A DNA stretch of 61,469 bases, taken from IMG/VR virus record IMGVR_UViG_3300048838_000933, positions 1 through 61,469 of that record; one strand, written 5' to 3'. The notes below the pieces were generated by a model. The model made no database searches and was not told the DNA's origin. It saw only the letters and a program-made list of their open reading frames with translations. Made by a program: the position numbers and the translations under genes. Below are positions 5,251 through 36,443 of the stretch, piece by piece; position 1 is the stretch's first letter; each line of letters starts with the position of its first letter. This DNA is from a virus. Its lineage: Duplodnaviria > Caudoviricetes.

Positions 5251-5456
5251 TGTGCAACCGATACCGAGCAGGAAGGACCGAACTGTGAGAGACACAAGAT
5301 TCGGCCGCATCGGGGACGCATTCAGCGGAACCCTGATCTGCAAGTGGCCTGGATGCGGTGCCGAAATCTACACCGAGGCTGTCCGAGAAGACCAGGTTGC
5401 CGACGACCACTGGAACTGCCACGAGGCCAGCCCTGACCCGAAGGTAAGCGACTGAG

Positions 5457-5870
5457 GTGGCAGGGTCGCGCCACTTCGTTCTGTTCACCGGCGGGCGCGA
5501 GCCGGACCCGTCCGTTCGCGACGACGTCGAAGCCACCTTGCGGCTACTGCGCGGACTCCACGGGGGCACCCTCAGAGTCATGCACGGCGCCGCCCAGGGT
5601 GTCGACACCTGGGTGGGTGAGTTGTGCGACGAGCTGGGGATCATCTCGAAGGGGTATCCCGCCGACTGGGGGCAGGGTCGGCGGGCCGGGTTGGACCGCA
5701 ACGTGAAGATGATCACGCTGCTGGTGTCATGGATGGGCGACGGACACACCGGGCAGGTCATCGCGTTCCCCGGTGGGGCAGGTACCGGCCATTGCGCTAC
5801 GACCGCCGAGAAGTGCGGGCTGGACGTGTCGTGGGTTGTCGCCACCGAACCCGGCCCACTCGCGTCGTAG
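5457..5870 (+). CDS. SLOG-superfamily protein (DUF2493/YspA-like)
   Basis: FTGGRE...HGAAQGVD...YPADW...AGLDRN...IAFPGGAGT. Confidence 0.85.
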   Translation: MAGSRHFVLFTGGREPDPSVRDDVEATLRLLRGLHGGTLRVMHGAAQGVDTWVGELCDELGIISKGYPADWGQGRRAGLDRNVKMITLLVSWMGDGHTGQVIAFPGGAGTGHCATTAEKCGLDVSWVVATEPGPLAS

Positions 5871-5907
5871 CTTGCCGAAAGGGCAGGTCGGGTGCAAGGC
5901 TCATGTC

Positions 5908-6237
5908 ATGACCGACTTTGATGACACCGTCCACTTCGCTGAGCCCACCGACGATCCGCCTGTTGAGGCCGAGGAGGTCGTCTCGGATGAGGTCGAGCTG
6001 ACCGAGCCCGAGCCCGAGGTGGCGCCCGAGCCCGAGGAGAAGCCGAAGCGTCGTCGGGCCTCCAAGCAGGAGAAGTCACCGACCGGCACCTACGTGCTGC
6101 AGAGGGGCGACAACCCGTCCACGGTGGCGCGCCAACTGTTCGGGCGGGCGTCGCGCGGTCGCGAGATCGTCGCAGCGAACCCGGGCGTGAAGTGGCGTGA
6201 AGGCGTCGAGGTCGTGTTGCCGCAGGACGACTCGTGA
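5908..6237 (+). CDS. LysM-domain protein with acidic disordered N-terminus
   Basis: TYVLQRGDNPSTVARQLFG...IVAANP...GVEVVLP. Confidence 0.8.
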   Translation: MTDFDDTVHFAEPTDDPPVEAEEVVSDEVELTEPEPEVAPEPEEKPKRRRASKQEKSPTGTYVLQRGDNPSTVARQLFGRASRGREIVAANPGVKWREGVEVVLPQDDS

Positions 6238-6536
6238 TCGCCGGCTTGAAGGCCTGGTACAACTCGCTGTCGCATCAGTGGAAGGCCACGATCCGCACGG
6301 CGTTGCAGACGATGCTCGGCGCGCTGTCGCTCGTCGTTGTCGCTCTGATCGCGTCGTTGACGAACATCGTGTCCGGCCAGGACGTCGACCTCGTCCAGGA
6401 CTTGTCGAACGCCGGTCGGGCTGCCGCTCTCGTGCTGCTCGGGTTGGCGTCGTCGGTGTGGGCGTTCATCATGAACCGGGCCAAGGGCGACTCAGACGAG
6501 TTGCCGCCGCCCGACCCGCCTGACGACGTGCCCTAG
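6234..6536 (+). CDS. Holin (r1t-like)
   Basis: Two TM helices, ATIRTALQT motif, upstream of endolysin. Confidence 0.75.
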   Translation: MIAGLKAWYNSLSHQWKATIRTALQTMLGALSLVVVALIASLTNIVSGQDVDLVQDLSNAGRAAALVLLGLASSVWAFIMNRAKGDSDELPPPDPPDDVP

Positions 6537-6726: not shown

Positions 6727-6852
6727 ATGGCTGACGACATCTACGACTTCGACGATTTCGACGACGACCCGGACGACTCCGAAGCGTTAGAGGCGTACGT
6801 CTCGGACGTGGTGGCAGTTGTAGAGGCGTTCGGTGTGGAGATTCCCGAATGA
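6727..6852 (+). CDS. Small highly acidic protein (41 aa)
   Basis: MADDIYDFDDFDDDPDDSE...; coupled to endolysin start. Confidence 0.6.
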   Translation: MADDIYDFDDFDDDPDDSEALEAYVSDVVAVVEAFGVEIPE

Positions 6853-8774
6853 CATACGAATGGGCCTCATGGCAGCTTCCGGCGCTGCTCGCCGACCCGG
6901 TCGTCGCTCCGAAGGTCATCGTCGTTCCCGGGCACGAGACGCGCGGTCGTCCGCCGTCGCAGTTCTCGTTCTTCCCGTCCGGCATCCTCGAGCACCACAC
7001 GGCGTGCATGTGCCGCATCGGCCACGACCCGCAGTCGTGCATCGACGTCATCGTCAGCGGCCACGGAACCACGCCCGGCCCGATCTCACAGCTCCTCGGC
7101 ACGTTCACGCGTCCCGGCACGAAGTGGACGGGCTCGAACGCAGACCCCCACATCGTGGTGATCGCTGATGGTCGCGCGAACCACGCCGGCTCGGGCGAAT
7201 ACTCCTGGGGGGCCCCTTCGGGCAACGGCTCGTCGATCGGCGTCGAATGGTGTATTGAGGCAGGCACTCCAGTCGTCACCCGTCGCGGTCTCGTTCCGAT
7301 CGAAGACGTCAAGATCGGCGATCTGGTATGGACTCACCGAGGCCGATGGCGCCCAGTCTCGGCGGTACATGACCGCGGTGAGCGCGACACTGTCACCATC
7401 AAGGCGGTCGGAGCGCGGCCTGTCTCGACCCCGGAGCACGAGTGGTGGACCGGCAGGGACTTCGTTCGCGCCGACCGCCTTGGTCCCGACGACGCGCTCG
7501 TGTCTCCCGCCGTCACTGATGCGGCCGTCCCTGATCTGGACGGGTTCACCGTCACTCCCGAATTGCTCCGCTTCATCGGCGCCTATGTCGCCGACGGGTG
7601 TACGTCGATCATCGACCGACCCCGCAAACCGGGCCATCTCCGAAAGGACCATCGACTCATCGTTTACCCGCGGGCAGAGAAGGCTGAGGTGGTCGCCGGG
7701 TGGGCGCGAGCCGCCGGACTCAACATCCGCAACGAACATTCTCACGCCGACACAGCACGTCGCCTCACAGTCGAATCAAAGGCCCTCGTTGAGTTCGTCG
7801 ACTACCACTTCGGTAGCCGGGCCCTGAACAAGACTCTCCCCTCCTGGTTGCTCGCGAACGCCGACAAGTACGGAGAAGCGTTCCTCCACGGCTATCTCCA
7901 CGGCGACGGCCACTGGGACGAAGAACGCTCCGCGTGGCAGGTGGCAACATCCTCGCGTTGCCTCCATGTCGGTGTGGCGATGCTGGCTCGCTCTCTCGGC
8001 TGGACGGCCATCACTGCCAGCCGCCACATTGAGGGAGAGAAGATCATTCACGGAAGGATCACGCGCGGTAACGCCGACCGCTGGACGCAACGTCTCTACG
8101 CCCGCCCGGTGCGGCGCTGGTCCAGCAGTCAGCGCCGCGACAGTGACGCCACCCTGGCCCCGTTTCGTACCACCGAAGCGGCCGGTCTACGGCACGTCTA
8201 CGACATCACCGTCGACGACGACCACAGCTTCGTCGCAGACGGGTTCCTGACCCACAACTGCGGGCCTGTGGACGATTGGCCCGATGAGGTCATCGATTTT
8301 CGCGCCCACGTCACCGCAGCACTGCTGCGCAACCGGCGCTGGAACGTCGGCAATGTCGATACCCACTACAGCTATGCCCGCCCGATCGGCCGCAAGATCG
8401 ACCCGTCCGGCGCGTGGGCGGGGGAGCCCACCTTGGGACTCACTCAGCCGTGGGCGCGCAACACCTGGCGCAGTCAGGTTGATCGCGTTCTGAACGCCCC
8501 CGCACCGCCACCCCCATCACCCGACCCCGAACCACCGATCACCCCCAAGGAGATACCCGACATGCTGTTCATCGCCAAGCCAACATTCCCCGGCGCCACC
8601 ACATCCGACCCGTGGATCGTCTACTACGAGAACCCCGGCAACGCACCCAGGGCCGAGCGGGCAACGAACGCCCACGTCAAGGCCGCGGCCGTCCTCGGCG
8701 TGCCGGTCGTAGACCAGGACTCACGGGAGCAGTACCTCAACGCCCTCTCCACTTACGGCATCCCGCTCACCTGA
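6849..8774 (+). CDS. Endolysin, N-acetylmuramoyl-L-alanine amidase (Amidase_2), intein-containing
   Basis: HHTA, ANHAG, GNxxSIGVE, H...RKIDP Zn-amidase motifs; Pro-rich linker; next to holin. Confidence 0.92.
   Translation: MTYEWASWQLPALLADPVVAPKVIVVPGHETRGRPPSQFSFFPSGILEHHTACMCRIGHDPQSCIDVIVSGHGTTPGPISQLLGTFTRPGTKWTGSNADPHIVVIADGRANHAGSGEYSWGAPSGNGSSIGVEWCIEAGTPVVTRRGLVPIEDVKIGDLVWTHRGRWRPVSAVHDRGERDTVTIKAVGARPVSTPEHEWWTGRDFVRADRLGPDDALVSPAVTDAAVPDLDGFTVTPELLRFIGAYVADGCTSIIDRPRKPGHLRKDHRLIVYPRAEKAEVVAGWARAAGLNIRNEHSHADTARRLTVESKALVEFVDYHFGSRALNKTLPSWLLANADKYGEAFLHGYLHGDGHWDEERSAWQVATSSRCLHVGVAMLARSLGWTAITASRHIEGEKIIHGRITRGNADRWTQRLYARPVRRWSSSQRRDSDATLAPFRTTEAAGLRHVYDITVDDDHSFVADGFLTHNCGPVDDWPDEVIDFRAHVTAALLRNRRWNVGNVDTHYSYARPIGRKIDPSGAWAGEPTLGLTQPWARNTWRSQVDRVLNAPAPPPPSPDPEPPITPKEIPDMLFIAKPTFPGATTSDPWIVYYENPGNAPRAERATNAHVKAAAVLGVPVVDQDSREQYLNALSTYGIPLT
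7251..8258 (+). mobile_element. Class-1 intein with LAGLIDADG homing endonuclease (336 aa)
   Basis: CIEAGTPV...TPEHEW...VYDITVDDDHSFVADGFLTHN/C; FIGAYVADG and FLHGYLHGDG. Confidence 0.95.
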
Positions 8775-14386: not shown

Positions 14387-14848
14387 CAGCCCGAAGCTAC
14401 ACAGATCGACTTCGCCGGGTATCGGGCCTGCCGCAACGAGCACTGCGACGAACTGGTCGTGCTCGAGGTCACGCAGCGCACCGGCGGACTCTGCACGACC
14501 TGCTTCCGAGGCGAACTGGGCAAGAACCTCGCCGAGATCGAAGTCCGCAACGCCGGACGCTCCCTGCGCATGTCGATGCCCGGCCGGACGCCGTCACGCG
14601 AGAAAGGCAACCGGTGGACACACATGGCCGGAACCAAGGCCCGGGCCCGCGCCGACAAGCGGCTCCGGCAGTTGTTCCGCGACCTCTACGACGTGATGCT
14701 CGCCGAAGAACGAGCCCGCCTCGGCCTGGAGCCATTCCCGTTGGAAACGGTCGTTCACGAACCGCCCGAGGCCGACGCATCCGAGACCATCGCATTCGCT
14801 CGTGTGTACGCTGCCCTCGACCAGCATGGAGTAGGCCTCGATGAGTAG
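14369..14848 (+). CDS. Zn-binding hypothetical protein
   Basis: CRNEHC...CTTC; overlaps portal start. Confidence 0.65.
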   Translation: MTDTSHQPEATQIDFAGYRACRNEHCDELVVLEVTQRTGGLCTTCFRGELGKNLAEIEVRNAGRSLRMSMPGRTPSREKGNRWTHMAGTKARARADKRLRQLFRDLYDVMLAEERARLGLEPFPLETVVHEPPEADASETIAFARVYAALDQHGVGLDE

Positions 14849-16376
14849 CTTGAAGTCCCGCCCGCCACTTGACCTGTCCGCAACAGCGGTCGAGGTCAAC
14901 CTCAACAACAACGACGACGGCGCCTACCTGCAGTCGACGGTCGCGTACGGGCAGCGGGCCGGTCGGGACGCCTGGAAGTGGTACAACGACATCGGCGAAG
15001 TCCACTACTCGATCTCGCGTTCGGCGCGCATCGGCGGCTACACCGAGTTCATCGCCGCCGAGTTCGGCCCAGACGGCAAGGTCGTCGAAACGATCGACAC
15101 TGGCCCGGCCGCCGAGATCGCCCAATCGTTCTACTCGGCCTACGGCGGCGTGCGCGGACTCGTGGAGCGCTACTACACGCTGCTCAAGGTTCCCGGCGAC
15201 ATGTACCTGATCGACATGGGCGACGGCTACCACCTGGCGTCGCCCGACGAACTCGACGTCCAGTCGTTCTCGTGGTGGTCGCGCCAGCGCGGTTCGTTGA
15301 AGGACGTTCGCCTCGTCACCGTGCCCACCGCCTACGGGGTCGGTGCGGCCGGTTCCGGCAAGGACCAGGAGCAGTTCTCGCGCACGATCAAAGCCGACCA
15401 GTTCATCGGGCGCATCTGGTCGCCGTCCAAGCGTTACGTCGACGTCCCCGAATCCGCCCTCCACGCGCTCGACACTGAATGCGAAGCCCTGCGCGACTTG
15501 ACGCTCAGCATCAAAGCGCAGCTCCGCTCCCGCTTCGCTCTCGCCGGACTCCTCGTGCTCCCGCCCGGCATGTCCATGGCGACATCGGCCAAGGGTGCCC
15601 GGGTCGCCGGCCAGATCACGCACTCCACCGTCGACCTGCTCGTCGCCGCGATGACCCGCAACGTGAAGAAGCTGGACGACGCTTCGGCGCTGCTGCCGAT
15701 CGTGATGACCGCCGCTCACCGTGATGACGCCGAGAAGATTCGCCACATCATCATGGACCGGTCCATCTTCGAGACCGACCTCCAGCTTCGCAGCGAACTG
15801 ATCGGGCGCATCCTGCAATCGCTGGACTCCAACCAGGACTCCGTCAAGGGCGGCACTGAGCAGTCTCACTGGGGGGCATGGTCGGCCGGCGACGACGAGC
15901 GGCGCGTCGCCATCGTCCCCGACATCGAATCGCTGTGCTGGTCAGCAACCCGGCTCCTCATGCAGCGCAAGCTGCCGGAGAACTTCCCCCGCAAGGGCAA
16001 CATCGGGTTCTGGTTCGACCTGTCCCGAGCGGCGATGCGTTCCAACATGCAGGAGGACGCCCGCCAGGCATTCGACCGCATCCTGATCGGCGATCCCGGG
16101 GCCCGGCGAATGTCCGGCATCCCCGAATCTGACGCCCCTTCACCCGAGGAGCGGGTGCGCGCCGTTGGCCGCCAGGTGAAGAACCCGCTGCTGATGCTCT
16201 ACGGTACGCCCGAATACAACACCATCGACTGGGACAAGGTCGCCAAGTTCGGGAAGTCAACCGGCCCGGCGCCCGATTCCCCAGCCGACGACCCTGAGTC
16301 CGGCCCCGGACAAGGTGATCCGGGCTCTCCGGACGACCAGGACCGAGACACGCCACGAACGGAGAGACCAGCATGA
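14841..16376 (+). CDS. Portal protein
   Basis: 511 aa before protease/capsid; VPGD, RSRFALAGLLVLP, SHWGAW resemble actinophage cluster-B-type portals. Confidence 0.8.
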   Translation: MSSLKSRPPLDLSATAVEVNLNNNDDGAYLQSTVAYGQRAGRDAWKWYNDIGEVHYSISRSARIGGYTEFIAAEFGPDGKVVETIDTGPAAEIAQSFYSAYGGVRGLVERYYTLLKVPGDMYLIDMGDGYHLASPDELDVQSFSWWSRQRGSLKDVRLVTVPTAYGVGAAGSGKDQEQFSRTIKADQFIGRIWSPSKRYVDVPESALHALDTECEALRDLTLSIKAQLRSRFALAGLLVLPPGMSMATSAKGARVAGQITHSTVDLLVAAMTRNVKKLDDASALLPIVMTAAHRDDAEKIRHIIMDRSIFETDLQLRSELIGRILQSLDSNQDSVKGGTEQSHWGAWSAGDDERRVAIVPDIESLCWSATRLLMQRKLPENFPRKGNIGFWFDLSRAAMRSNMQEDARQAFDRILIGDPGARRMSGIPESDAPSPEERVRAVGRQVKNPLLMLYGTPEYNTIDWDKVAKFGKSTGPAPDSPADDPESGPGQGDPGSPDDQDRDTPRTERPA

Positions 16377-17635
16377 AGAAGCAGTACGGGGCACGCCTCA
16401 TGGACAAGCCTGATGGGATGCTCCGACCCATCTTCTTCCCAGCGCTCACATTCATGGACGTCTTCACCGGCGACCGCCGATACCTCAAGTCCGAGGGCGG
16501 CGGCACGCGTGAACTCCCGCAGACCATCTGGGCCCAGTTCACCCAGGACGGCGGCCACAACGGTGCCGTCATCGTCGGCGCGCTGCACGAGCTGACGTTC
16601 AACGACGACGGCGTCGTGTCCGGCTCGGGCTGGATTCTCGACGACGAGAACGGGCGCAAGCTGGTCATGTACGCCCAGACCCAGGCGCTGCGCGGCAACT
16701 CCGCCGACCTCGCCGACGTCCGCGCCGAGTACCAGTGGGACGACGAAGCCGACGACATCGCCATCGTGTTCTCCGAGTGGAACATCGCGGGCACCACCAT
16801 CGTCGGGCGCCCGGCGTTCAAGGACGCCAAGTATTCGCTCGACGAGGAACTGGTCGCGTCATGGATGGCCGACACCGACCCGCTCGTCATCGACCTGCCC
16901 ACCGTCATCAACGTCCTCTCGGCGCAGCCCGAGTTGACAGCGGACGCAGCGCAGCGCCCGGCATGGGATCTGTTCCACCAGGTCGAGCCCGACGTCCCGC
17001 AGCCGCAACGCATCGCCGAGGAGCCCGACGAGCGCGGCTTTCTTGCCGTCTCCGGCCACCTCGCACTGTGGAACGCGTGCCACGACGGCTACGACCAGTG
17101 CATCATCCCGCCCCGCCCGCTCGACAACTACGCAGGCTTCAACTCGGCGTCGGTGCTCACCGACAAGGGCCTCGTCGCCACCGGTCCGCTGTTCCTCAAG
17201 GGCGGCCACCCGAAGGCCGGTGAACTGGCGAAGAAGTCGGTCGAGGAATGCTACGGCTCGATCGAGAACGCCTGGGCCGACGTGCGCGTCATCCCGGGGC
17301 GCCTCGGCCCGTGGCTGTCCGGCTACGTCCGTCCCGGCACCCCCGAGGAGAACATCATCGCCGCACGCGCCTCCAAGCTGTCGGGCCACTGGCTCGGCGG
17401 TCGCCTGATGGCTGCGTGCTCGGTGAACGTGCCCGGCTACGAAGTCCCCGGCGGCGAATCGTTCTCGTTGGCCGCCGACGGCACCGTCGCCGAACTGGTC
17501 GCCAGCTTCCCGATCTGCGCCACCGAGGAGACCGGCGAAGTCGACGCCGCCGAGACCGACACGTCGACCGACGACAACTTCGACCTCGACGCCATCCGGT
17601 TCGAACTGGAGAAGCAAGACCTGCTCGCCGAGTAG
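16373..17635 (+). CDS. Capsid maturation protease
   Basis: TGDRR...HNGAVIVG...GHLALWNACH...ADVR...SGHW; synteny. Confidence 0.75.
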   Translation: MKKQYGARLMDKPDGMLRPIFFPALTFMDVFTGDRRYLKSEGGGTRELPQTIWAQFTQDGGHNGAVIVGALHELTFNDDGVVSGSGWILDDENGRKLVMYAQTQALRGNSADLADVRAEYQWDDEADDIAIVFSEWNIAGTTIVGRPAFKDAKYSLDEELVASWMADTDPLVIDLPTVINVLSAQPELTADAAQRPAWDLFHQVEPDVPQPQRIAEEPDERGFLAVSGHLALWNACHDGYDQCIIPPRPLDNYAGFNSASVLTDKGLVATGPLFLKGGHPKAGELAKKSVEECYGSIENAWADVRVIPGRLGPWLSGYVRPGTPEENIIAARASKLSGHWLGGRLMAACSVNVPGYEVPGGESFSLAADGTVAELVASFPICATEETGEVDAAETDTSTDDNFDLDAIRFELEKQDLLAE

Positions 17636-17707
17636 GCGACTTGCGAATCACGCCCTTGCACAGCAAGAGTGTCCGACCAGAAGTGCTCAAGCCCTAGGAG
17701 GCCAATC

Positions 17708-19366
17708 GTGTTCCCCGAAATCCCCGAGAACTGGAAGTCGCTGAGCGCTTCCGAACTTCGTGCCCTCGCCGCCGAGATCAAGACCGCGTTCACGGAACTC
17801 GGTGACGACATCGACGCCGACCTGCGCACCAAGGCGCTCGCCGCCGTCGACGGCCGCCCCGCCCTGCTCAGCCTCGCCGCCGAGAAGGAGCGCGAGGCCG
17901 CCGCCAAGGCTGCGCTCGCCGCCGAGGAAGACGAGATCGACGAGTCCGCCGACGACTCGGCCGACGACTCCGACGAGGACGACCTCGGTGACGAGTCCGA
18001 CACCGACGACGACGCCGACGAGACCGACGCCGACGACCTGTCGTCGAAGACCCCGGTCCGCAAGTCCGGCACGTCCACCGACCTCGGCGCCGAGCCCGAA
18101 GCCAAGCCGGCCACCCCGGCGCTGCGCCCCGACGCCATCCTGGCTCGCGGTGGCGTCACCGACCGCAAGGGCGGCGAGCGCTTCGAGAGCTGGGGCGACC
18201 TCGCCCAGACGCTGCTCGAAGTCGCCGAGACCGTCTCGCCTTCCTCGACCGCCAAGCACCAGGTCGCCTACGTGGAAGGCAACTTCTCCGAGGCCCAGCA
18301 GCTCGGCCCGAACATGGTGTCCAACCTCAAGCGGTTCGACACCGAGGAACTGCAGGCAGCGTTCTGCGCACCCGCCACGCCGGTCTACGACATGGCGTGC
18401 TGGAACACCGACCGCCGCCCGGTCCGTGGCAGCCTCCCACAGTTCCGCCCCGACGCCCGCGGCTCGGTCAGCATCTTCCCGTCGCCGTCACTGTCGGACA
18501 TCACCGGCCAGTCGCCGGCCGGTGTCGGCATCTGGGACACCGACGACGACGACACGATCGGCACGACCGACCCGTCGTCGAAGGAGTGCGCGACGATCAC
18601 CTGCGGTTCGCCGACGGTGTACTCGCTGTACGGCGTGTGGCGCTGCCTCACCATCCAGAACTTGCTCGCCATGACCTTCCCTGAGCTGGTCGAGGCGTGG
18701 CTCAACCGCCTGGGCGCCGCCCACTCCCGTCTCGCCGAGACCCAGCTCCTTGAGGCCATGGGTACCGAGGCTGCAGCGGTCACCGGTGAGACCTTGGCCT
18801 ACGGCGCTTCGACGTCGGTCACCACCCAGATCCTCGAAGTGATCGCCCTCCACCAGGAGCAGGAGCGCTGGGACGGCGACCAGATGGAAGGCTGGATGCC
18901 TCGCTGGGTCCGCTCGGCGATGAAGATGGACATCATGCGTCGCCGCAGCGACTCGGGTCGCCCGTCGATGGTGACCGACGCGGAGATCGACACGATGTTC
19001 CGCAACGTCGGTGTCAACCCGCACTTCTTCATCGACACCCCGACCTGGGCCGCAGCCGTTCCGGCCGTCGCCACCGGCGGCAACAAGAACAACCTGCCCG
19101 CCACCATCGACATCCTGCTCGCCCCCCGGGGCAAGTTCGCCGTCATGGACCGCGGCCAGCTCAACATCGGCGTGACCGGCAACAACATCTACCGCGACAA
19201 CGCATCGAACGCCTCCAACCAGTTCACCATGTTCTGGGAGAACTTCGAAGGCATCGTGAACACCGACTCGTGCCCTGCGTACCTGCTCGAGTTCCCGGCG
19301 CTCTGCTACAGCGGCGTCCAGATCGCTGACCTGGCGATCGACTGCGACGGCACCCCGACCGTCTGA
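17708..19366 (+). CDS. Major capsid protein with N-terminal scaffold-like domain
   Basis: AGGAG RBS + GTG, strong codon bias, helical/acidic N-terminus, FCAPATPVYD, followed by terminator. Confidence 0.85.
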   Translation: MFPEIPENWKSLSASELRALAAEIKTAFTELGDDIDADLRTKALAAVDGRPALLSLAAEKEREAAAKAALAAEEDEIDESADDSADDSDEDDLGDESDTDDDADETDADDLSSKTPVRKSGTSTDLGAEPEAKPATPALRPDAILARGGVTDRKGGERFESWGDLAQTLLEVAETVSPSSTAKHQVAYVEGNFSEAQQLGPNMVSNLKRFDTEELQAAFCAPATPVYDMACWNTDRRPVRGSLPQFRPDARGSVSIFPSPSLSDITGQSPAGVGIWDTDDDDTIGTTDPSSKECATITCGSPTVYSLYGVWRCLTIQNLLAMTFPELVEAWLNRLGAAHSRLAETQLLEAMGTEAAAVTGETLAYGASTSVTTQILEVIALHQEQERWDGDQMEGWMPRWVRSAMKMDIMRRRSDSGRPSMVTDAEIDTMFRNVGVNPHFFIDTPTWAAAVPAVATGGNKNNLPATIDILLAPRGKFAVMDRGQLNIGVTGNNIYRDNASNASNQFTMFWENFEGIVNTDSCPAYLLEFPALCYSGVQIADLAIDCDGTPTV

Positions 19367-19386
19367 CCAACCGAACGAACAACTGA

Positions 19387-19423
19387 ACGAGAGGCCGGGT
19401 CGTACGTCGGCCCGGCCTCTCGT
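19387..19423 (+). terminator. Stem-loop terminator
   Basis: ACGAGAGGCCGGG...CCCGGCCTCTCGT. Confidence 0.75.
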
Positions 19424-19442
19424 CGTGTGAGAGGATGAGCCA

Positions 19443-20363
19443 ATGATCAACATGGAAGTCCCCATCCAGCTCCCGGCACCGACGCGGCGCTCGGGCGGCC
19501 TGTTCGTGGATGTCGCCACACCGATCGACACGAACTTCGGTGGGCGCGACCGGCTCGGCTCCGGGGTCGTTCATGTCCCGTGGGGATGCGACCAGGTGTT
19601 CCTCGGCAACGCCGAAATCTGCGTTGTGGACGGCGAGACCGTGATCTCCGGGGTCGACGGCATTGACGTCGGCGCCTCGGACCTGGTGTCGAAGGACAAC
19701 GCGATCCGCCCGATCCCCGACCAGGTGGCCCACCCGCCGTTCAAGGTTGTCGACGGTCTCGAATGCGGCGTGCTTTCGATGCCCCACGACACCACGCCGA
19801 GCGCCTCAATCGGCAACCGGCTCCGCTGGCGGATCACGACGCAACTGTCGAAGATGATGCTCGCCGAACTGGTTTCCGGCTCCGTCTCGGGCGGCCCGTC
19901 ACTCGCCTCGGAAGCCACCCCACTGACGGCGGCCACCGGCGTGTTCGGGGCGGCATTCCATGTTGAGACCTGGCTCGCCAGCGTCCTCCACAACGCTGTC
20001 GGCGCCATCGTGCTCCCGGTCGGCCTGCTGCCGCTCGCAGTTGAGTCCGGCTGGGTGAACGCGGCCACGATGCGGACCCTCACCGGCCACTACGTGATCG
20101 CGGACGCCGGGTTCACTGGCGACATCACCGATCCGACTTCGGCGACGCCGGCCACGTTCTCAGTATTCGGTATGGCGATCCCGGGCCACGCCTACTCCAA
20201 CCCGCGCATCTTGGAGGTCGCCTCCGGCCGCAGCCACGTCGACATCACCGACGACGTCATCCGCGAAATCATGGAGTCCTACGCTCAGCTCGCCTTCGAC
20301 CCGTGCTCGGTCGGCGAAGTCGACACGACGTTGGACTTCGACCAGTTGTTCTTGACGCCGTAA
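19443..20363 (+). CDS. Second capsid protein (candidate pentamer/minor capsid)
   Basis: 306 aa directly after MCP, as in cluster-B-like heads; synteny only. Confidence 0.55.
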   Translation: MINMEVPIQLPAPTRRSGGLFVDVATPIDTNFGGRDRLGSGVVHVPWGCDQVFLGNAEICVVDGETVISGVDGIDVGASDLVSKDNAIRPIPDQVAHPPFKVVDGLECGVLSMPHDTTPSASIGNRLRWRITTQLSKMMLAELVSGSVSGGPSLASEATPLTAATGVFGAAFHVETWLASVLHNAVGAIVLPVGLLPLAVESGWVNAATMRTLTGHYVIADAGFTGDITDPTSATPATFSVFGMAIPGHAYSNPRILEVASGRSHVDITDDVIREIMESYAQLAFDPCSVGEVDTTLDFDQLFLTP

Positions 20364-20372
20364 GGAGACCCC

Positions 20373-20561
20373 GCGGCCCAGAAGGGCAAGCCATTCCCAA
20401 CGTACGTCGGCGAGGCCGCAGCGATCGGTACGCCTGCCGCCGACGACGAAATAGTTTGGCGAGACGCGTCCAGCAACGTCACCGCGCGTGAGACTTCGGC
20501 GGCGCTCGATGCGAGACTTGCTGCCAAGAATGGCCGCCGTACGTCCTGCCTGTTGAGATGA
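20373..20561 (+). pseudogene. Start-less truncated paralog of the 39934 fibre N-terminus
   Basis: KGKPFPTYVGEAAAIGTPAADDEIVWRDAS; AGGAG RBS followed by GCG at start position. Confidence 0.7.
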
Positions 20562-20564
20562 CGT

Positions 20565-20577
20565 GGCATGATATGAC
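20565..20577. promoter_or_regulatory. Operator/-10 of glycosyltransferase cassette
   Basis: GGCATGATATGAC; GTG start at 20579. Confidence 0.65.
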
Positions 20578-20578
20578 G

Positions 20579-21325
20579 GTGCCTTTGGTCCACGTCACCA
20601 TCCCCACGTTCAAGACGCCGCCCGAGATGCTCCGACGGGCAGTCCTGTCAGTTCTCGAGCAGACACACCGAGACCTCCGGCTTATCGTGGTCTGCGACGG
20701 CGAGCCGATTCACCGCGCTCAAGAAGCGTTGGTGGGCCTGTCGGACGCGAGGATGAACTTGCTGAGCCACGAGGTCAACCAGGGTCGGTACGCGTGCGAC
20801 CACAACCTGGTCCGCTCAATCGCTCAACGCGAGCCCGGACAACTGTGGGCTCCACTCGACTCCGACGATTGGGCCGAACTGGACTGGCTGGAGAAGCTGC
20901 TGGCGTGGAAAGACGCGGCAGACGCGGACGTCGCGTTCTGCAACCACCGCATCCATCGCAGCAGCCGGGCCGGGCAACGCATCGAAGTGGCGAAGCCGTG
21001 GGACGGCACCGACCGGCTCGCATGGCACGCCCACCTGTCGGGGCTGTGGTCGGTCGACTTCGTCGTGCGCTGGGGGCTGACGAACCCACGCTGGAGAATC
21101 GGCTGGGACACGATCATGACCAGCGCTCCGTGGGTGCTCGGGCGGGCCACCATCTGCCCGCTGCCGCTCGTCAACCGTACCGTCCGGCCGAACTCACTCA
21201 CTACCGCCCGGGCCACCCGGTTCGGATCACCAGCCCGAGCCGAAGCGCGACGTCGCTGCCAGCAGGTCTGGTCAGAGATCGTCGCCAACCCGAATCTCGC
21301 ATCGGAGATACTCGACAATGCCTGA
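20579..21325 (+). CDS. GT2-family glycosyltransferase
   Basis: VTIPTF...RAVLSVLEQT...IVVCDG...NQG...LDSDD. Confidence 0.9.
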   Translation: MPLVHVTIPTFKTPPEMLRRAVLSVLEQTHRDLRLIVVCDGEPIHRAQEALVGLSDARMNLLSHEVNQGRYACDHNLVRSIAQREPGQLWAPLDSDDWAELDWLEKLLAWKDAADADVAFCNHRIHRSSRAGQRIEVAKPWDGTDRLAWHAHLSGLWSVDFVVRWGLTNPRWRIGWDTIMTSAPWVLGRATICPLPLVNRTVRPNSLTTARATRFGSPARAEARRRCQQVWSEIVANPNLASEILDNA

Positions 21326-22535
21326 ACTTCCCGCACTCAAGATTCGCAACCTCAAGCTCAACGACTGGGCGCTGTCAAAGGCGACGCTCGCCGAGCTGGA
21401 CGCCTACCTGCGACGCCACAACCCGATGAACATCGTCGAGTTCGGCTCCGGCCACTCCACAGTGATCCTGGCCCGCTACGCCTCGGAGACTGGAGCCAAC
21501 GTCACTACCTTTGAGCACGACCCGAAGTTCCTGCGCCAGACCCACCATCTCCTCGGCGGCCTCAGGGGCTACGTCGACCTGGAGTTGGCGCCACTGGCCG
21601 GCTCGCCCCCGATGTACAGCGCGAGGATGCCGGGGCTGTTCGACTTCGCCCTGATCGACGGACCACCGCAAGGCAAGGGCGGGCGGGCCGCGACGTTCCC
21701 GGCGCTGATGGACATCGACCACGGCGAGTACGCCGAAGTGTGGCTCGATGACGGATCGCGGCAGCAGGAATCTCTGGCGGCCGAGGAGTGGATGAAGACC
21801 TTTGCTGGGTGGTCGTTCGACTTCCACGGGTTGCCTCACGGGCTGCTGCGGTTCGGCAAGCACATCCGACCGCCACTGATCGACGGCACCGGGGTAACGA
21901 TCACCATGTTGACCGGTGCCCGCCCGGAGCTGTTCGCCGACACCTGGAACCACCTCCCCAGGTCGCTCGTCCAGTCGGCGGATTGCATCGTCGTGCTCGT
22001 CAACGGAGCCGACGTCGAGACCTTGCAGTTCGTTGAGGATCACATCGTCCCGCTCGGGCTCAACCTCGTGAAACTGACAACGACCGAGATCGAACCGATG
22101 GGCCAAGCCATGGGACGGTTCGTCGACCATGTCGAGTCACCCCTGTGGTTGCACCTCGAGGACGACTGGCGCTACGTCACCACCCACGACGGCTGGCTCA
22201 ACGAAGCACGGACGGTCCTCGCTGACGAGCCCGATGTCGCCCAGGTTCGTCTCCGTCACAGCTCGGAGTCCGTGCTCGACTACCACCAGCAGACCCGCAA
22301 GCCGCTCAACTGGCAGTCCCACCAGTTCGGGATGGTGTCGGAGAGTTCCCACCTGACCGCCAACCCGATGCTGGCGCGCACCGATCAGTGGGCATCGCTG
22401 TGGCCGTGCGTCGGTGAGAAGGCGATGCAGAGAACCGCCGTGTCCAAAGGGATGCACCGGGTGGTACAACTGCATCCTGGTGCGTTCACTCACACGGGAG
22501 ACTCAGATTCGCTCAGAGGGAAGTTGGGGCGTTGA
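21318..22535 (+). CDS. Class I SAM methyltransferase fused to GT-A-like domain
   Basis: IVEFGSGHST, LIDGPP, LDD; C-terminal LHLEDDW. Confidence 0.85.
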   Translation: MPELPALKIRNLKLNDWALSKATLAELDAYLRRHNPMNIVEFGSGHSTVILARYASETGANVTTFEHDPKFLRQTHHLLGGLRGYVDLELAPLAGSPPMYSARMPGLFDFALIDGPPQGKGGRAATFPALMDIDHGEYAEVWLDDGSRQQESLAAEEWMKTFAGWSFDFHGLPHGLLRFGKHIRPPLIDGTGVTITMLTGARPELFADTWNHLPRSLVQSADCIVVLVNGADVETLQFVEDHIVPLGLNLVKLTTTEIEPMGQAMGRFVDHVESPLWLHLEDDWRYVTTHDGWLNEARTVLADEPDVAQVRLRHSSESVLDYHQQTRKPLNWQSHQFGMVSESSHLTANPMLARTDQWASLWPCVGEKAMQRTAVSKGMHRVVQLHPGAFTHTGDSDSLRGKLGR

Positions 22536-23197
22536 GCATCGACGTCGTCATCCCCTGGTCTGGGAACTGTGTCTACAGGGCGTCTGCACGATCCTGGGTG
22601 GAATCGCAGTGGCGTTCGCTCGGCTTCAACGTGATCGTCGGCGAAATCGATGGCCAGTGGTCGAAAGCCCGAGCGGTCGCCGTCGCCCTCAAACAGTCCG
22701 ATGCGGACACCCTCATCGTGACCGACGCCGATCTTTGGAGCGAAGCAGCACCGGCTGCGGCCCTTTCGGTTGACACCACCGGCGGATGGGCAGTCCCGTT
22801 CTCCACGGTGCGCCGACTCGACCTGCCGTCCACCACCGAAGTCCTCAACGGCGGCCCGCTCGGCGGCAAGCTCGCCAGGCCACCGTTCCGGGCGGTCCCC
22901 GGCGGCGGGCTCACCATCCTGCGCCGGGACCTGTACGACCAAGTTCCACTCGACGCCCGCTTCATCGGCTGGAACTACGAAGACGTCGCATGGGGCCAAG
23001 CCCTCACGTTCGTCGCCGGGCGCCCGAAGATGTACAACGTGGCGCTGTGGCACCTCTGGCACCCACCGGCACCGAAAGGCCCGTCACCGGAGAGGACCAT
23101 CGGCACCGAACTGCGCGGCCGGTACTCGAAGGCCCGCCGCAACCCAGAAGCCATGGAAGCTCTGCTGTCCGAAGCCCGTGAAGCGCTCAGGTGCTAA
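22532..23197 (+). CDS. Glycosyltransferase (GT2/GT7C-like)
   Basis: VVIPW, DAD, GGG, DARFIGWNYED, HLWH. Confidence 0.85.
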   Translation: MSIDVVIPWSGNCVYRASARSWVESQWRSLGFNVIVGEIDGQWSKARAVAVALKQSDADTLIVTDADLWSEAAPAAALSVDTTGGWAVPFSTVRRLDLPSTTEVLNGGPLGGKLARPPFRAVPGGGLTILRRDLYDQVPLDARFIGWNYEDVAWGQALTFVAGRPKMYNVALWHLWHPPAPKGPSPERTIGTELRGRYSKARRNPEAMEALLSEAREALRC

Positions 23198-23206
23198 TCT
23201 GCGGCC

Positions 23207-23941
23207 GTGGTGTACCAACTCCGTGAAGCGTGTGAACCGTTTGCCGTCTTCGCGGACGTCACATGCGACTGCGAGGGGGTGGGCGAGGCCGAGGTCGACG
23301 AGATTCTCGCCCAGGCCACCGACGCCCTGGTCGCCATGAGCGGCTTCCAGTATCGGGGCCAATGCCTGGAGACCTTCCGCCCCCGCGGCCCGTCTGGCTG
23401 CTCGTGTCTCTCGACGACGGCATGGAACTGCCGGTGCTCCGACCTCGAAGGCTTCACGCTGCCGAGCCCGATCGCATTGAACTCAGACGGCGACCCCGAC
23501 ATCACCGTCACCATCGATGGCGACGTGTTCGTCGACTGGGTGCTCGTCGACGGCAACTTCCTGATGCGCTCCGATGGCCGGTCATGGCCCTCATGTCAGG
23601 ACGTCACGATCCCGGCCGGTGAAGTCGGGTCGTTTGAGGTCACCGTCAACTACGGCGATCCGCCGTCGCTGATCGCCCGCAACGCCGTCACCGAGATCGC
23701 CTGCCTGTTCCTGCGACGCAACCCGAACTCGCAACGCAACCTGCCGGCCAACACCCGCACCGCCTCGTCGCAGGGTGTCACGATCACGATGGAAACCTTG
23801 GAGAAGGAGATCGCGAACCGGGCCTTCATGCTCCCGTGGACGATCCGCTTCCTGACGATCCACGCGCCCCAGGGTCGCAACACCCCGTACGTCTATTCGC
23901 CCGAGCTGGACTCAGGGTTCGTGCTACATCGCGTCCAATGA
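23207..23941 (+). CDS. Head-to-tail adaptor
   Basis: ATDALVAMSG, WPSCQ, YGDPP, QGVTI motifs; synteny. Confidence 0.7.
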   Translation: MVYQLREACEPFAVFADVTCDCEGVGEAEVDEILAQATDALVAMSGFQYRGQCLETFRPRGPSGCSCLSTTAWNCRCSDLEGFTLPSPIALNSDGDPDITVTIDGDVFVDWVLVDGNFLMRSDGRSWPSCQDVTIPAGEVGSFEVTVNYGDPPSLIARNAVTEIACLFLRRNPNSQRNLPANTRTASSQGVTITMETLEKEIANRAFMLPWTIRFLTIHAPQGRNTPYVYSPELDSGFVLHRVQ

Positions 23942-24306
23942 AGCGCACCGAGCTGATCCGCAAGACACCGCTGCGCCAGAAGAAGCCGATGAACCGCAGC
24001 GGGCGGGTCAAGCCCCGCTCCAAGAAGACGCTCGCCGAGATGCCCGAGCGGGCCCGGGTGCGAGACGCCGTGCTGGCCCGGGACCGCATCTGCCGGGGCC
24101 GAGGTCTGACACCCGTGGATTGCACCACGCACTCGAGCGATGTCCACGAGTTGAAGCGGGGCGCCAACCGGCGTGAGTGCTACCTGGACCCGGCGAAGTG
24201 CATCGGGCTCTGCCGCACCTGCCACACCTTCGTCACCGAGCACCCGGCCGAAGCCCGCCTGCTGGGGTTGGCGCTACGGAGCGGCGACCCGTTCCCGGCG
24301 TCGTAG
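23938..24306 (+). CDS. HNH endonuclease
   Basis: RDRIC...DVHE...LCRTCH; basic N-terminus. Confidence 0.8.
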   Translation: MKRTELIRKTPLRQKKPMNRSGRVKPRSKKTLAEMPERARVRDAVLARDRICRGRGLTPVDCTTHSSDVHELKRGANRRECYLDPAKCIGLCRTCHTFVTEHPAEARLLGLALRSGDPFPAS

Positions 24307-24376
24307 CCATTCGACAATCAGCCATCGCGTCGGTGAAGATGTCGGCCAACAGCGTTTCTCGAAAGGACGACTCAAC

Positions 24377-25099
24377 ATGGCATCCGCACTTCCAGGCGAC
24401 ATCTGCGTTGGCGAACACTCCGTCTGCCTCGTGCGCGCAGCACTTCTCGGCGCAGACTGCACCCCCGTGGGTGGCGCCGACACCGGCATCGTCACCACCG
24501 GCATCATCACCGCGACCGCTTCGCCCGAGTTCATCGACGGCGCCTCGTTCGAGCCCCTGACCGGCTGCGGCCGCATCGCATGGGCCTACGAGACGAAGGC
24601 GCAGATTCGCCGGTGGAACATCTCCGGCGAACTCACCTACTTCGACCACGAGGCCATGTCGATCCTGTTCGGCGGCCAGATCGTCGTCGGCGAGGTGGGC
24701 ACGGCGTTTGCCGGAGACAACATCGGTTGGGCATCGCCGTTCTACACCGACACCGAAGTGTCCGACAACGTGTACCTCGAGTTCATCACCCTCACCGCCG
24801 GTGAAGGCGTCGGCGACTGCGGCAACCCGGGCGACCCGTTCCCCGCAGCCGTCGGCCACATCTTCCCGAAGGCGTCGCTCAACCCGGGCGAGCGCACGAT
24901 GGAGTTCGATGCGGCCACGCTCGCCTTTGAGGGCTTCTCGGTGAACAACCCGAACATCGGCGACGGCCCGTGGAACGACTGGCCCGGCGTCGGCAACATC
25001 CCGAACAGCGGCTACACCCGGGTCAGCTACAGCCAGGACGAGTACGACGCCATCCTGGCGCTCGCCGCCTGCGGCTTCCAGACCACGCTTACCCCGTGA
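24377..25099 (+). CDS. Major tail protein
   Basis: GAAAGGA RBS, high codon bias, 240 aa, followed by terminator. Confidence 0.75.
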   Translation: MASALPGDICVGEHSVCLVRAALLGADCTPVGGADTGIVTTGIITATASPEFIDGASFEPLTGCGRIAWAYETKAQIRRWNISGELTYFDHEAMSILFGGQIVVGEVGTAFAGDNIGWASPFYTDTEVSDNVYLEFITLTAGEGVGDCGNPGDPFPAAVGHIFPKASLNPGERTMEFDAATLAFEGFSVNNPNIGDGPWNDWPGVGNIPNSGYTRVSYSQDEYDAILALAACGFQTTLTP

Positions 25100-25126
25100 C
25101 CACAGCCCGCTGACGAAGCCCCCTCA

Positions 25127-25161
25127 CAGCACCCCCGGCCTACGTGCAGCCGGGGGTGCTG
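25127..25161 (+). terminator. Stem-loop terminator
   Basis: CAGCACCCCCGGC...GCCGGGGGTGCTG. Confidence 0.75.
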
Positions 25162-25184
25162 CGCGTCTGCGGTAATGTCCAGCC

Positions 25185-25772
25185 ATGCTCCCGAACAGCC
25201 AAGACTGCCTGCCCGGCCCGTTCGTCTGCTGCGACGTGCTGTTCACCGCCGGTGAGACCATCCTCAACGTCGCCCTCGACGCCATCAACAACGCCGACTG
25301 CTACCTCGACGAATGCCACGCCCCGAACATGGAAGGCATCGTCACGATCGGGCCCGCCTCCAACTATCCACACGCCGACCTGCTCACCGTGTCGATGGAA
25401 CGAATGAGGGCACGCCAAACCCAGATCGCCCAGGGCCGCACCCCGAACCCGAGCGCGCAGCTTTCGGTGTGGAACGTCGAGTTCATGGAGTCTGGCTGGA
25501 TCACCTTCGGCGAGGAAGGCGAGATTCCTGACCCGCAGTTCTTGCAGATGTTGGCGATGCACTCCTACGGCCACGCCGAGCAGATGTACCGCCGGCTCGT
25601 GAATGCCGTCGCCACCGGCACGATCGCCGAAGGCTGCAAGGGCGGTAACTGCGGAGCCTCCATCGGCGACCTGATCCCGATCGACCCTCGCGGCCACCTC
25701 GTCGGCTGGCGCACAACGGTCACTGTCCCCATCGACTTGAGCAAGGTGTGCGATGGTCCAACTCCGAGCTGA
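25185..25772 (+). CDS. Tail terminator-like structural protein
   Basis: Synteny; C-terminal PRGHLVGW. Confidence 0.55.
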   Translation: MLPNSQDCLPGPFVCCDVLFTAGETILNVALDAINNADCYLDECHAPNMEGIVTIGPASNYPHADLLTVSMERMRARQTQIAQGRTPNPSAQLSVWNVEFMESGWITFGEEGEIPDPQFLQMLAMHSYGHAEQMYRRLVNAVATGTIAEGCKGGNCGASIGDLIPIDPRGHLVGWRTTVTVPIDLSKVCDGPTPS

Positions 25773-26229
25773 CATCGCCAACACGGGCGCCTTCCAGCGC
25801 GTCGTCCGCGAACGTATGGCGCTCGCCACCCGCGCTCGCCTACAGGGAATCGGACGCGACATGGTGAACCGGGCCAACTCGAAGATGGCCGCCAACTTCG
25901 ACCTCAACCGTCCAGCCGACCGCCGCCGCCATCCGGGCTCACGCCGGGCGAAAGGGGCGCTGGACTTCCAGATCGACGGCTCCGACTTCCCGATCACCAT
26001 CCAGTACCGGGTGCTCGGCGGCGACACGGTGCGTGATCGGATCATCTTCATGAACTGGGGCACCAGCCGCCACGACATCACCCCGAGCGGGGCAGCGGGC
26101 GGGAACGGCAACGTGTTGGCATGGCAGGACGGCGACGGCTGGGTGTACGCCGACGCCGTGGACCACCCCGGCCAGCGCGCCGTCAACTTCCTCGAGGAAG
26201 CGATGCAGGAGGCGTTCGACAACCTCTGA
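25753..26229 (+). CDS. HK97 gp10-like neck protein
   Basis: WGTSRHDITP...VDHPG...FLEEAM. Confidence 0.7.
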   Translation: MVQLRADIANTGAFQRVVRERMALATRARLQGIGRDMVNRANSKMAANFDLNRPADRRRHPGSRRAKGALDFQIDGSDFPITIQYRVLGGDTVRDRIIFMNWGTSRHDITPSGAAGGNGNVLAWQDGDGWVYADAVDHPGQRAVNFLEEAMQEAFDNL

Positions 26230-26261
26230 GCACAGAGTGCTTCCCACGCGCCCGAATGCGT

Positions 26262-26274
26262 GGCATGATATGAC
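26262..26274. promoter_or_regulatory. Operator/-10 of tail chaperone gene
   Basis: GGCATGATATGAC; ATG at 26276. Confidence 0.65.
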
Positions 26275-26275
26275 G

Positions 26276-26662
26276 ATGCCAGCAGCACGCAAAGTCATCG
26301 ACATCGACGCACTCCTCTCCGAGCACCGCAGCAAGGTGCTCGCCGAGCGCAAGTACATCCCGGTCAAGCTGTTCGGGAGGGAGTGGCGCATCTCGAACCA
26401 GCTCAACAACTTCCTGGCGCTGCGCGCCGGCGAAGGGGACGTTGAAGCCTTCACCCAGTTCCTGCTGAACTGCACCCACGAAGACGAACGACACGACTTC
26501 CGCACCGCGCTGTACGAGGCCGACGTCATGGACCCCGAGGGGCTGCTGCTGGTCATCAACCACCTGATGGAAGCAGTCGCAGGAAACCCTACGAAGTCGT
26601 CTTCCGGTTCCTCTCCTTCGGGGCGGACCCAGGTCGCCAAGCCGAAGTCCGCGGCCACCTGA
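26276..26662 (+). CDS. Tail assembly chaperone (G)
   Basis: Before tape measure; ends GNPT + Ser-rich tail. Confidence 0.8.
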   Translation: MPAARKVIDIDALLSEHRSKVLAERKYIPVKLFGREWRISNQLNNFLALRAGEGDVEAFTQFLLNCTHEDERHDFRTALYEADVMDPEGLLLVINHLMEAVAGNPTKSSSGSSPSGRTQVAKPKSAAT

Positions 26663-26961
26663 TCCGTGCGGGGCACGACCCCGCAGAGGTCTCCATCTCC
26701 GAATGGATCGACGTCGTCTGGTCGCTGATCCTCGAGGAAGGGCGTGGCGGGTTCATGGACTCGGGCAAGTACCGCAAGATCATGACCGATCTGTTCTTCC
26801 ACGGCGAAGTCCCGCCCGACGAGCCCGAGGAGAAAGGACCCCGTCCCAAGAAGGGGACGAAGACCGTCAAGCGTGCGCCCCGTCCGCCGAAGATGTCGAA
26901 GCTGGATGAGCTACGGGCCTTCAATCAGGCAATCGCGGCACGGAATGCGCCCGCCGAGTAG
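26584..26961 (+). CDS. Tail assembly chaperone -1 frameshift extension (GT)
   Basis: Slippery A AAC CCT at 26584-26590; -1 frame open PYEVVFRF... to 26961. Confidence 0.75.
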   Translation, partial: KPYEVVFRFLSFGADPGRQAEVRGHLIRAGHDPAEVSISEWIDVVWSLILEEGRGGFMDSGKYRKIMTDLFFHGEVPPDEPEEKGPRPKKGTKTVKRAPRPPKMSKLDELRAFNQAIAARNAPAE

Positions 26962-26973
26962 CCTCACCCAACG

Positions 26974-33213: not shown

Positions 33214-33237
33214 GGAACATGTATTTCCATAAAGGAC

Positions 33238-33909: not shown

Positions 33910-33910
33910 T

Positions 33911-36441: not shown

Positions 36442-36443
36442 CG

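Follow-up and report, generated by a model that had tools for sequence, protein, structure and literature searches.

A class 1 intein between the zinc ligands of a phage amidase endolysin

What is a segment of 336 amino acids doing in the middle of the catalytic domain of a phage lysis enzyme, and can that enzyme work before the segment is gone? The question is raised by the endolysin gene of a virus of the Caudoviricetes, IMG/VR record IMGVR_UViG_3300048838_000933. The 61,469 bp of this record (the window herein, i.e., the whole stretch of DNA that was analyzed) are the whole phage genome, with a G+C content of 65%. An initial annotation of the locus, made from the sequence only, had described a complete class 1 intein with a homing endonuclease, had called a cell wall amidase an unusual host for such an element, and had speculated that the cysteines at the two splice junctions could make splicing, and with it lysis, sensitive to redox state or metals. 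To our knowledge, nearly all inteins described so far reside in proteins that act in DNA and nucleotide metabolism. Our analyses indicate that the element is very probably a selfish, mobile class 1 intein in an N-acetylmuramoyl-L-alanine amidase (Amidase_2) endolysin and that splicing would be needed before the lysin works. Sequence comparison establishes the boundaries of the intein, its splicing residues and nuclease motifs, the seamless junction in alleles that lack it, its location between the zinc ligands, and its membership in a clade of lysin-hosted inteins.

Boundaries of the intein and its position in the endolysin

Both parts of the protein that flank the segment (the N- and C-exteins) match PHROG 880 ("endolysin," category lysis) on adjoining ranges of the profile (Table 1), and the N terminus of the precursor aligns with the N termini of intein-free homologues. 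The junctions read NGSSIGVEW|CIEAGT and GFLTHN|CGPVDDWPDE, and removal of the 336 residues between them leaves exteins of 134 and 171 amino acids, i.e., a spliced product of 305 amino acids, as had been predicted. The excised piece matches the Pfam families Hint_2 (29.4 bits; cutoff, 28.4), LAGLIDADG_3 (24.1 bits; cutoff, 22.5), and Hom_end (21.8 bits; cutoff, 21.1), with the latter two covering intein residues 197 to 267. Sequence matches in the PDB comprise the Spl DnaX mini-intein (7cfv), which corresponds to the C-terminal splicing block, and 7qsu and 7qss, which correspond to the nuclease region of VMA inteins. All canonical class 1 splicing residues are present. The intein ends in H469-N470 and is followed by C471; among 18 aligned lysin inteins (see below), the terminal Asn is found in all and the penultimate His in 17. 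The junctions, the splicing residues, the Pfam matches, and the seamless homologues described below thus bear out a complete class 1 LAGLIDADG intein with exactly the initially annotated boundaries.

Two other kinds of element were considered and rejected. The continuous frame rules out a group I intron as well as two gene halves with a separate nuclease gene between them, and a bacterial intein-like or Hint-only domain is ruled out by the HN|C end together with the presence of a nuclease and of seamless alleles.

For the host protein, a profile of seven intein-free homologues matched PDB entry 9hna (1.2e-24) and AmpD (7e-7), and in these alignments the HHT, GIE, H, and KxD motifs fall in register. 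Entry 9HNA is the Ami2B domain of LysA from mycobacteriophage DS6A (10.1101/2025.01.22.634383). Excerpts of that preprint give H251, H364, and D376 as the zinc ligands and E317, at the end of strand beta-5, as the catalytic residue; they place K374 two residues before the Asp and describe the beta5-alpha4 loop as lining the substrate channel. According to the profile alignment and these roles, the equivalent residues in the window lysin are H50 (H251), H506 (H364), D518 (D376), E133 (E317), and K516 (K374). The two proteins have in common a spacing of 12 residues from His to Asp and a Lys two residues before the Asp, and H49, H50, E133, H506, K516, and D518 are invariant in an 11-row alignment (A4). 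Mapped in this way, the intein is placed one residue past the predicted catalytic Glu, at the start of the beta5-alpha4 loop, with one zinc ligand (His50) before it and two (His506 and Asp518) after it, in agreement with the initial annotation.

The C-terminal domain of the lysin has a counterpart on another IMG/VR contig (L001), where positions 5398..6219 encode a 273-amino-acid VanY/M15-like lysin with a different catalytic domain and an uninterrupted SNH motif. The common domain is an apparent case of the module shuffling that is typical of endolysins.

Table 1. Coordinates of the endolysin gene, its intein, and other features in the window
Feature	Position	Strand	Basis
Gene for the endolysin precursor, 641 codons and a stop codon (N-extein, intein, and C-extein)	6849..8774	+	Open reading frame (ORF) list; PHROG 880 endolysin, 5.5e-15
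Intein, class 1 with homing endonuclease, 336 aa (amino acids), precursor residues 135-470	7251..8258	+	Pfam, PDB sequence matches, Foldseek, seamless junctions
Block A with Cys1 (C135, nucleotides 7251-7253)	7251..7280	+	Cys in 18/18 aligned lysin inteins
Block B TxxH (T194-P-E-H197)	7425..7448	+	[T/S]xxH in 17/18 lysin inteins; GxxH in P0059
First LAGLIDADG motif (IGAYVADG, acidic D249)	7563..7601	+	Asp in 18/18 aligned inteins
Second LAGLIDADG motif (LHGYLHGDG, acidic D353)	7878..7913	+	Asp in 18/18 aligned inteins
Blocks F and G, ending His469-Asn470	8196..8258	+	VYDITV..DHSFVADG..THN aligns with 7cfv and 18 lysin inteins
N-extein, aa 1-134: first half of Amidase_2, HHT zinc-ligand motif, NHAG motif, GIE catalytic Glu (E133, nucleotides 7245-7247)	6849..7250	+	PHROG 880 profile 164-268
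HHTAC...GHDPQSC: first zinc-ligand His, then subfamily-specific Cys/His-rich insert	6990..7040	+	Motif position and 81-member comparison
C-extein, aa 471-641: Cys+1, rest of amidase (H506, K516, D518), Pro-rich linker, C-terminal domain	8259..8771	+	PHROG 880 profile 277-386
C-terminal domain, about 75 aa, probably wall binding	8547..8771	+	81% identity to C terminus of L001 lysin
Predicted holin-like protein, 100 aa, two hydrophobic segments	6234..6536	+	PHROG 4316 (function unknown)
Reference stretch for the position of the large terminase gene	14841..37375		
Large terminase, 884 aa	43639..46293	+	PHROG profiles
Second intein, in large terminase, about 370 aa	about 43846..44955		LAGLIDADG_3, 2.1e-7; Hom_end, 4.5e-6 (Pfam)
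C5 DNA methylase-like gene	52856..53668	-	Pfam DNA_methylase, 1.7e-7

Intein-free alleles and related lysin inteins

Intein-free alleles, which the initial annotation had suggested looking for, read straight through the insertion site. Five intein-free homologues (P0002-P0006; 352 to 368 amino acids; 63 to 73% identity in the best extein segment) read IEWCGP across the junction without a gap, and so do three IMG/VR loci (L082, L086, and L090), with the tblastn match of the N-extein ending at nucleotide (nt) 1512 and that of the C-extein starting at nt 1513. On the left of the site, 28/30, 23/30, and 26/30 nt agree with these three loci, respectively; on the right, agreement drops to 14/30, 14/30, and 16/30 nt, mostly in the first 8 to 9 nt. 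Strong identity in the left flank together with the weaker right flank fits a conserved nuclease target.

Codon usage also gives the intein a foreign look, in keeping with mobility. Its G+C content at third codon positions (GC3) is 0.750, compared to 0.866 and 0.819 in the two exteins, so that the weaker bias noted initially was confirmed, and the value lies under those of all 64 windows of 336 codons from 11 other genes (0.836 ± 0.042 [mean ± standard deviation]; minimum, 0.759).

Relatives were collected with a HMMER profile made from the window protein and two intein-bearing lysins (P0008 and P0010), which gave 25,155 matches at an E value of ≤0.001 among 1.84 billion cluster representatives; the best 150 of these 25,155 were analyzed. 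A local hidden Markov model (HMM) of intein-free amidases, run against 172 proteins, gave 21 matches, namely, its 7 seeds, the window fragment (P0001), and 13 intein-bearing amidases. Among the matches listed, related inteins thus occur in at least 13 cluster representatives besides the window protein and occupy five or more Amidase_2 sites, all of them in conserved motifs: before HHT (P0051, P0057, and P0083), after PGPL (P0011 and P0053), before NHAG (P0033, P0037, and P0041), after GIExEN (P0008, P0010, and P0030; the window intein lies two residues earlier in the same loop), and before the second zinc-binding His (P0038 and P0048). Four further representatives have an intein before SNHG; P0052 and P0059 match Pfam VanY, and for P0055 and P0058 only the motif and the place in the tree point to a VanY-type host. 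Two PG_binding_1 domains were found in P0060 and a weak Amidase_2 match in P0056. Several metagenomic proteins of 1,200 to 1,900 amino acids (P0031, P0032, P0035, P0036, P0039, and others) contain two or three related inteins each, at sites such as after KDGKGVKG and before HPxWLE, and no host domain was recognized in them by Pfam.

For phylogenetic analysis, 171 intein copies were cut out with an intein HMM. In a FastTree tree of these 171 rows, the window intein falls in a clade of 14 rows with a support of 100, every member of which is hosted by a lysin. The same 14-intein clade was obtained at 100/99 with IQ-TREE on 28 rows, which comprised all 18 lysin inteins and 10 chosen outgroups, with the other 143 left out. 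Only Amidase_2 or VanY/M15-type lysins occur as hosts in this clade, whose members are the window intein, the amidase inteins at the PGPL, NHAG, and GIExEN sites, the intein of P0083, and the four SNHG inteins. The inteins of P0051/P0057 and P0038/P0048 belong to a separate lineage, nearer to other hosts. Within the clade, the SNHG inteins (flanks PGT|...|SNHGLG) nest beside the intein of P0041 (AGT|...|SNHGG), which suggests that an intein jumped between two unrelated wall hydrolases, an amidase and a VanY/M15 enzyme, via similar target sequences.

Two pairs of intein-bearing and intein-free lysins look like a sign of mobility in this intein family. The intein-bearing P0008 and its intein-free counterpart P0045 have an identity of 98% in their N-exteins and of 80% in their C-exteins; for P0010 (with) and P0068 (without), the corresponding values are 85% and 60%. 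Both intein-free partners have Asn at the position of the bearers' Ser+1. The window intein joins the inteins of P0008, P0010, and P0030 in 0% of 200 bootstrap trees and may represent an independent arrival in the GIE loop. We also considered that it could be a same-site allele of these three inteins, which was not supported, as they lie two residues further on (after EN), are followed by Ser+1, and showed no grouping with the window intein in the bootstrap analysis.

Splicing, homing, and alternative readings

Under the favored reading, the 641-amino-acid precursor would be inactive, because 336 residues part His50 and Glu133 from His506, Lys516, and Asp518. Cys135 would form a thioester, Cys471 would attack it, Asn470 would cyclize, and an S-to-N shift would yield the 305-amino-acid amidase. 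Splicing would be autocatalytic and constitutive in the cytoplasm, and the timing of lysis would be left to the holin. The nuclease would cut intein-free lysin alleles of coinfecting relatives at GNGSSIG(V/I)EW|CGP, the intein would be copied in by repair, and the element would persist as a selfish gene. That the phage depends on splicing of its lysin is a fair inference: the initial claim that lysis requires splicing is reasonable but is not a demonstration. Apart from a PHROG "endolysin" label on part of the tape measure protein (see below), screening of 40 ORFs against PHROGs and of 28 plus 5 window ORFs against Pfam revealed no further peptidoglycan hydrolase.

Several observations weigh against a working mobile intein. 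Splicing and DNA cleavage are predictions from motifs. The matches to Hint_2, LAGLIDADG_3, and Hom_end are only 1 to 2 bits over their cutoffs, and Intein_splicing reaches 25.2 versus a cutoff of 35.8. The precursor scores 15.8 for Amidase_2 versus a cutoff of 26, and the separate exteins have no match to this family; intein-free relatives exceed the cutoff (P0005, 29.4; L086, 26.8). An AlphaFold2 model of the whole precursor, made from an 11-row alignment, is poor (mean predicted local distance difference test [pLDDT] score of 56, and <50 at both junctions); it says nothing of extein packing and was not used for active-site geometry. In favor of an intein fold, its nuclease region has pLDDT scores of mostly 60 to 84, and a Foldseek search with this low-confidence model gave the TliVMA intein, PI-SceI, PI-PfuI, and I-DmoI as best matches (E values of 1e-10 to 1e-4), with I-DmoI chains at a template modeling score of ∼0.6 on target length. 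The listed rows of this fold search contain intein and nuclease folds only, and the amidase was not recovered. No close relative of the phage, with or without the intein, was found in searches of GenBank phages and IMG/VR, and therefore recent homing in this lineage is unsupported. In the IQ-TREE tree, the window intein stands by itself on a long branch of 0.89 changes per column, and the intein nearest to it is 43% identical; in the 18-intein alignment, it lacks ∼23 residues after block B that most relatives have. This gap could mean that the nuclease or its DNA recognition region is impaired and the element is stranded.

The long lone branch, on which identity to any relative stays at or below 43%, and the gap, set against most clade members, are in favor of the first alternative, in which splicing is kept by selection for the lysin while the homing endonuclease is dead and the intein is inherited only vertically. 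We consider this alternative unlikely, if deserving of attention. The acidic residues of both LAGLIDADG motifs are kept and the whole 336-amino-acid frame is open; GC3 has not ameliorated to the genome level, which argues against a very long residence; and the same clade contains pairs of close alleles of which one has the intein and the other does not.

A second alternative follows the speculation in the initial annotation. Conditional splicing would gate lysis, with the Cys1/Cys+1 pair or a nearby zinc holding the precursor unspliced until redox state or metal levels change, so that burst timing would follow host physiology. Both cysteines are present, and text excerpts on the redox-sensitive DnaB intein of Mycobacterium smegmatis (PMC6195587) provide a precedent. 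In addition, Cys+1 is part of a subfamily signature: of 81 members of the family, 8 combine a Cys behind GIEW with the HHTAC...HDPxxC insert, 72 possess neither, and a single one has the Cys but not the insert. In the mature enzyme, Cys+1 might accordingly serve as a ligand in a second metal site or take part in a disulfide. However, these 8 sequences are one related subfamily, and so the co-occurrence counts as a single evolutionary event. Cys+1 was inherited with the extein and not brought by the intein, being native to the intein-free relatives (C136 is invariant in a five-row alignment, A5). A Cys pair is not conserved in the intein family, since the three same-loop relatives have Ser+1 and one clade member has Thr+1. 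In the canonical scheme, moreover, it is the holin that sets the time of lysis. The splicing residues of the window intein are all canonical, including the penultimate His, the loss of which is tied to precursor accumulation in excerpts of Kelley et al. 2016 (PMC5050341). Redox or metal gating is thus unsupported and appears improbable. A variant of it, which we regard as just as doubtful, is that Cys+1 forms a second Cys/His metal site or a disulfide with C53, H59, and C64 and that splicing is coupled to the assembly of this site, making lysin maturation responsive to zinc or redox state; if true, phage lysis would be subject to a checkpoint at the level of protein splicing, over and above the holin.

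Finally, it is very improbable that the intein no longer splices and that another enzyme lyses the host: splicing is predicted from motifs, and residues 265 to 699 of the tape measure protein match PHROG 971 ("endolysin"), but the 641-codon frame is uninterrupted, the amidase and splicing residues are all intact, extein GC3 is typical of the genome, and Pfam screening of 28 ORFs, including that of the tape measure, which matched TMP_3 only, and of 5 window ORFs yielded no further peptidoglycan hydrolase domain. Ordinary protein splicing combined with homing is the mechanism that we favor for the lysin intein, and a regulatory role is possible but unsupported.

The phage genome and known systems

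The window contains genes for a large terminase, a portal, a major head protein, and a tape measure (PHROG profiles, 40 ORFs), together with a WhiB-like gene (Pfam, 28 ORFs). The structural genes and the WhiB-like gene therefore indicate a tailed phage of an actinobacterium. Its portal is ≤28% identical to those of the GenBank phages in the collection, megablast of the lysin gene against GenBank phages gave no match, and a synteny search via the downstream DHH phosphoesterase gene gave no IMG/VR relative. In cellular genomes, the closest relative of the intein-free lysin (47% identity over the full length) is encoded on a contig of an uncultured Acidimicrobiaceae metagenome-assembled genome (L002). 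This lysin has the same Cys/His insert, and a Cys likewise follows its catalytic GIE motif, which reads GIEG; the match is a weak hint at the host group (Acidimicrobiaceae).

The lysin gene starts ∼300 nt downstream of the predicted holin-like gene, which has a GC3 of 0.92 and Kyte-Doolittle peaks at about residues 20 to 50 and 60 to 83. The gene order is unusual: the large terminase gene comes after the tail genes, ∼27 kb downstream of the portal gene, and the lysis genes lie upstream of the portal gene amid DNA metabolism genes (RusA, DHH phosphoesterase, and exonuclease). A second intein with a LAGLIDADG domain is present in the large terminase, where it directly follows the GK of the Walker A motif and ends in THN|T. 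It has no Cys at position 1, a Trp after the block B His, a Cys in block F, and a Thr before HN, a pattern that we take to be that of the class 3 inteins of mycobacteriophage terminases. Relatives of the lysin intein family are found mostly in C5 DNA methylases, yet the phage's own methylase-like gene is without an intein.

Previous descriptions of lysin inteins were sought in sequence records and in the literature. In tblastn searches against 50,697 GenBank phage records, no match covered ≥80% of the query, be it the precursor (0/51) or two other intein-bearing lysins (0/325 and 0/177); the matches were to the intein alone (in methylases) or to the amidase alone. No endolysin intein was found described in the full-text literature (openly licensed PMC papers and bioRxiv). 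Papers that name both inteins and amidases or endolysins, on Staphylococcus jumbo, Lactobacillus, and Pseudomonas phages, report inteins or introns in other genes, and Gosselin et al. 2023 (PMC9957025) report a methylase intein only. Kelley et al. 2016 (PMC5050341) state that nucleic acid binding is common to every intein-bearing phage protein of their set; the terms lysin, endolysin, amidase, peptidoglycan, cell wall, and lysis are absent from the main text, as are lysin, endolysin, and amidase from two supplementary files. Excerpts of Payne and Hatfull 2012 (PMC3314691) give 0 of 224 mycobacteriophage Lysin A genes as interrupted by an intein. As far as these sources go, an amidase is indeed an unusual intein host, but it is not a unique one, since related inteins occur in many uncultured lysins, in this loop and at at least four other sites.

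A sizeable clade of lysin inteins thus appears to have been undescribed so far. The window provides a complete phage genome with an intact-looking mobile intein in the lysis enzyme, and the known target range of inteins is widened by a whole clade whose members move among active-site motifs of Amidase_2 and VanY/M15, two wall hydrolases that are unrelated to each other. With their similar flanks, the NHAG site of the amidase and the SNHG site of M15 offer a natural case of ectopic site switching. In the mining of phage genomes for lysins, such genes would be expected at twice the usual length and below the Pfam thresholds, and their products would probably need splicing for activity on expression.

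The closest solved relative of the exteins, the DS6A LysA Ami2B domain (PDB 9HNA and 9HTY), has the same H, H, and D ligands, the Glu at the end of beta-5, and the Lys, as given in the preprint excerpts. It differs in having no intein, no Cys/His insert after HHT, and a longer beta5-alpha4 loop, which is the loop that houses the intein in the window lysin.

With regard to the intein, TliVMA (7QSU and 7QSS), PI-SceI (1VDE and 1EF0), and PI-PfuI (1DQ3) have the same layout, a Hint domain split by a two-motif LAGLIDADG domain, and I-DmoI resembles it in the nuclease fold, as judged from the low-confidence model. These solved nuclease-bearing inteins differ in sequence (12 to 18% identity) and in their hosts, which are archaeal or yeast V-ATPase and polymerase. 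DnaB intein 1 of M. smegmatis (PMC6195587) and the RadA intein of Pyrococcus horikoshii (PMC5790916) are, according to excerpts of these papers, active-center inteins on whose splicing the host activity depends, as predicted for the window lysin. Catalytic cysteines are a possible redox handle in these conditional-splicing inteins and in the window intein alike; unlike them, the window intein gives no sign of conditional behavior.

Among GenBank phages, the nearest relatives of the window intein are the inteins of C5 DNA methylases ("DNMT" in PMC5050341; also PMC9957025), with identities over the whole intein of 31.6% for Propionibacterium phage B22 and 27 to 28% for mycobacteriophages such as Doug and Pacc40. 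Among the matches listed, 168 intein copies were cut out of cluster representatives, and for at least 48 of them the insertion site is the methylase P|C motif. These methylase inteins are like the window intein in size, in their Cys1...HN ends, and in the double LAGLIDADG motif. In contrast to them, the window intein has a cell wall amidase, which is not a DNA-binding protein, as its host and belongs to a separate, strongly supported clade of lysin inteins only.

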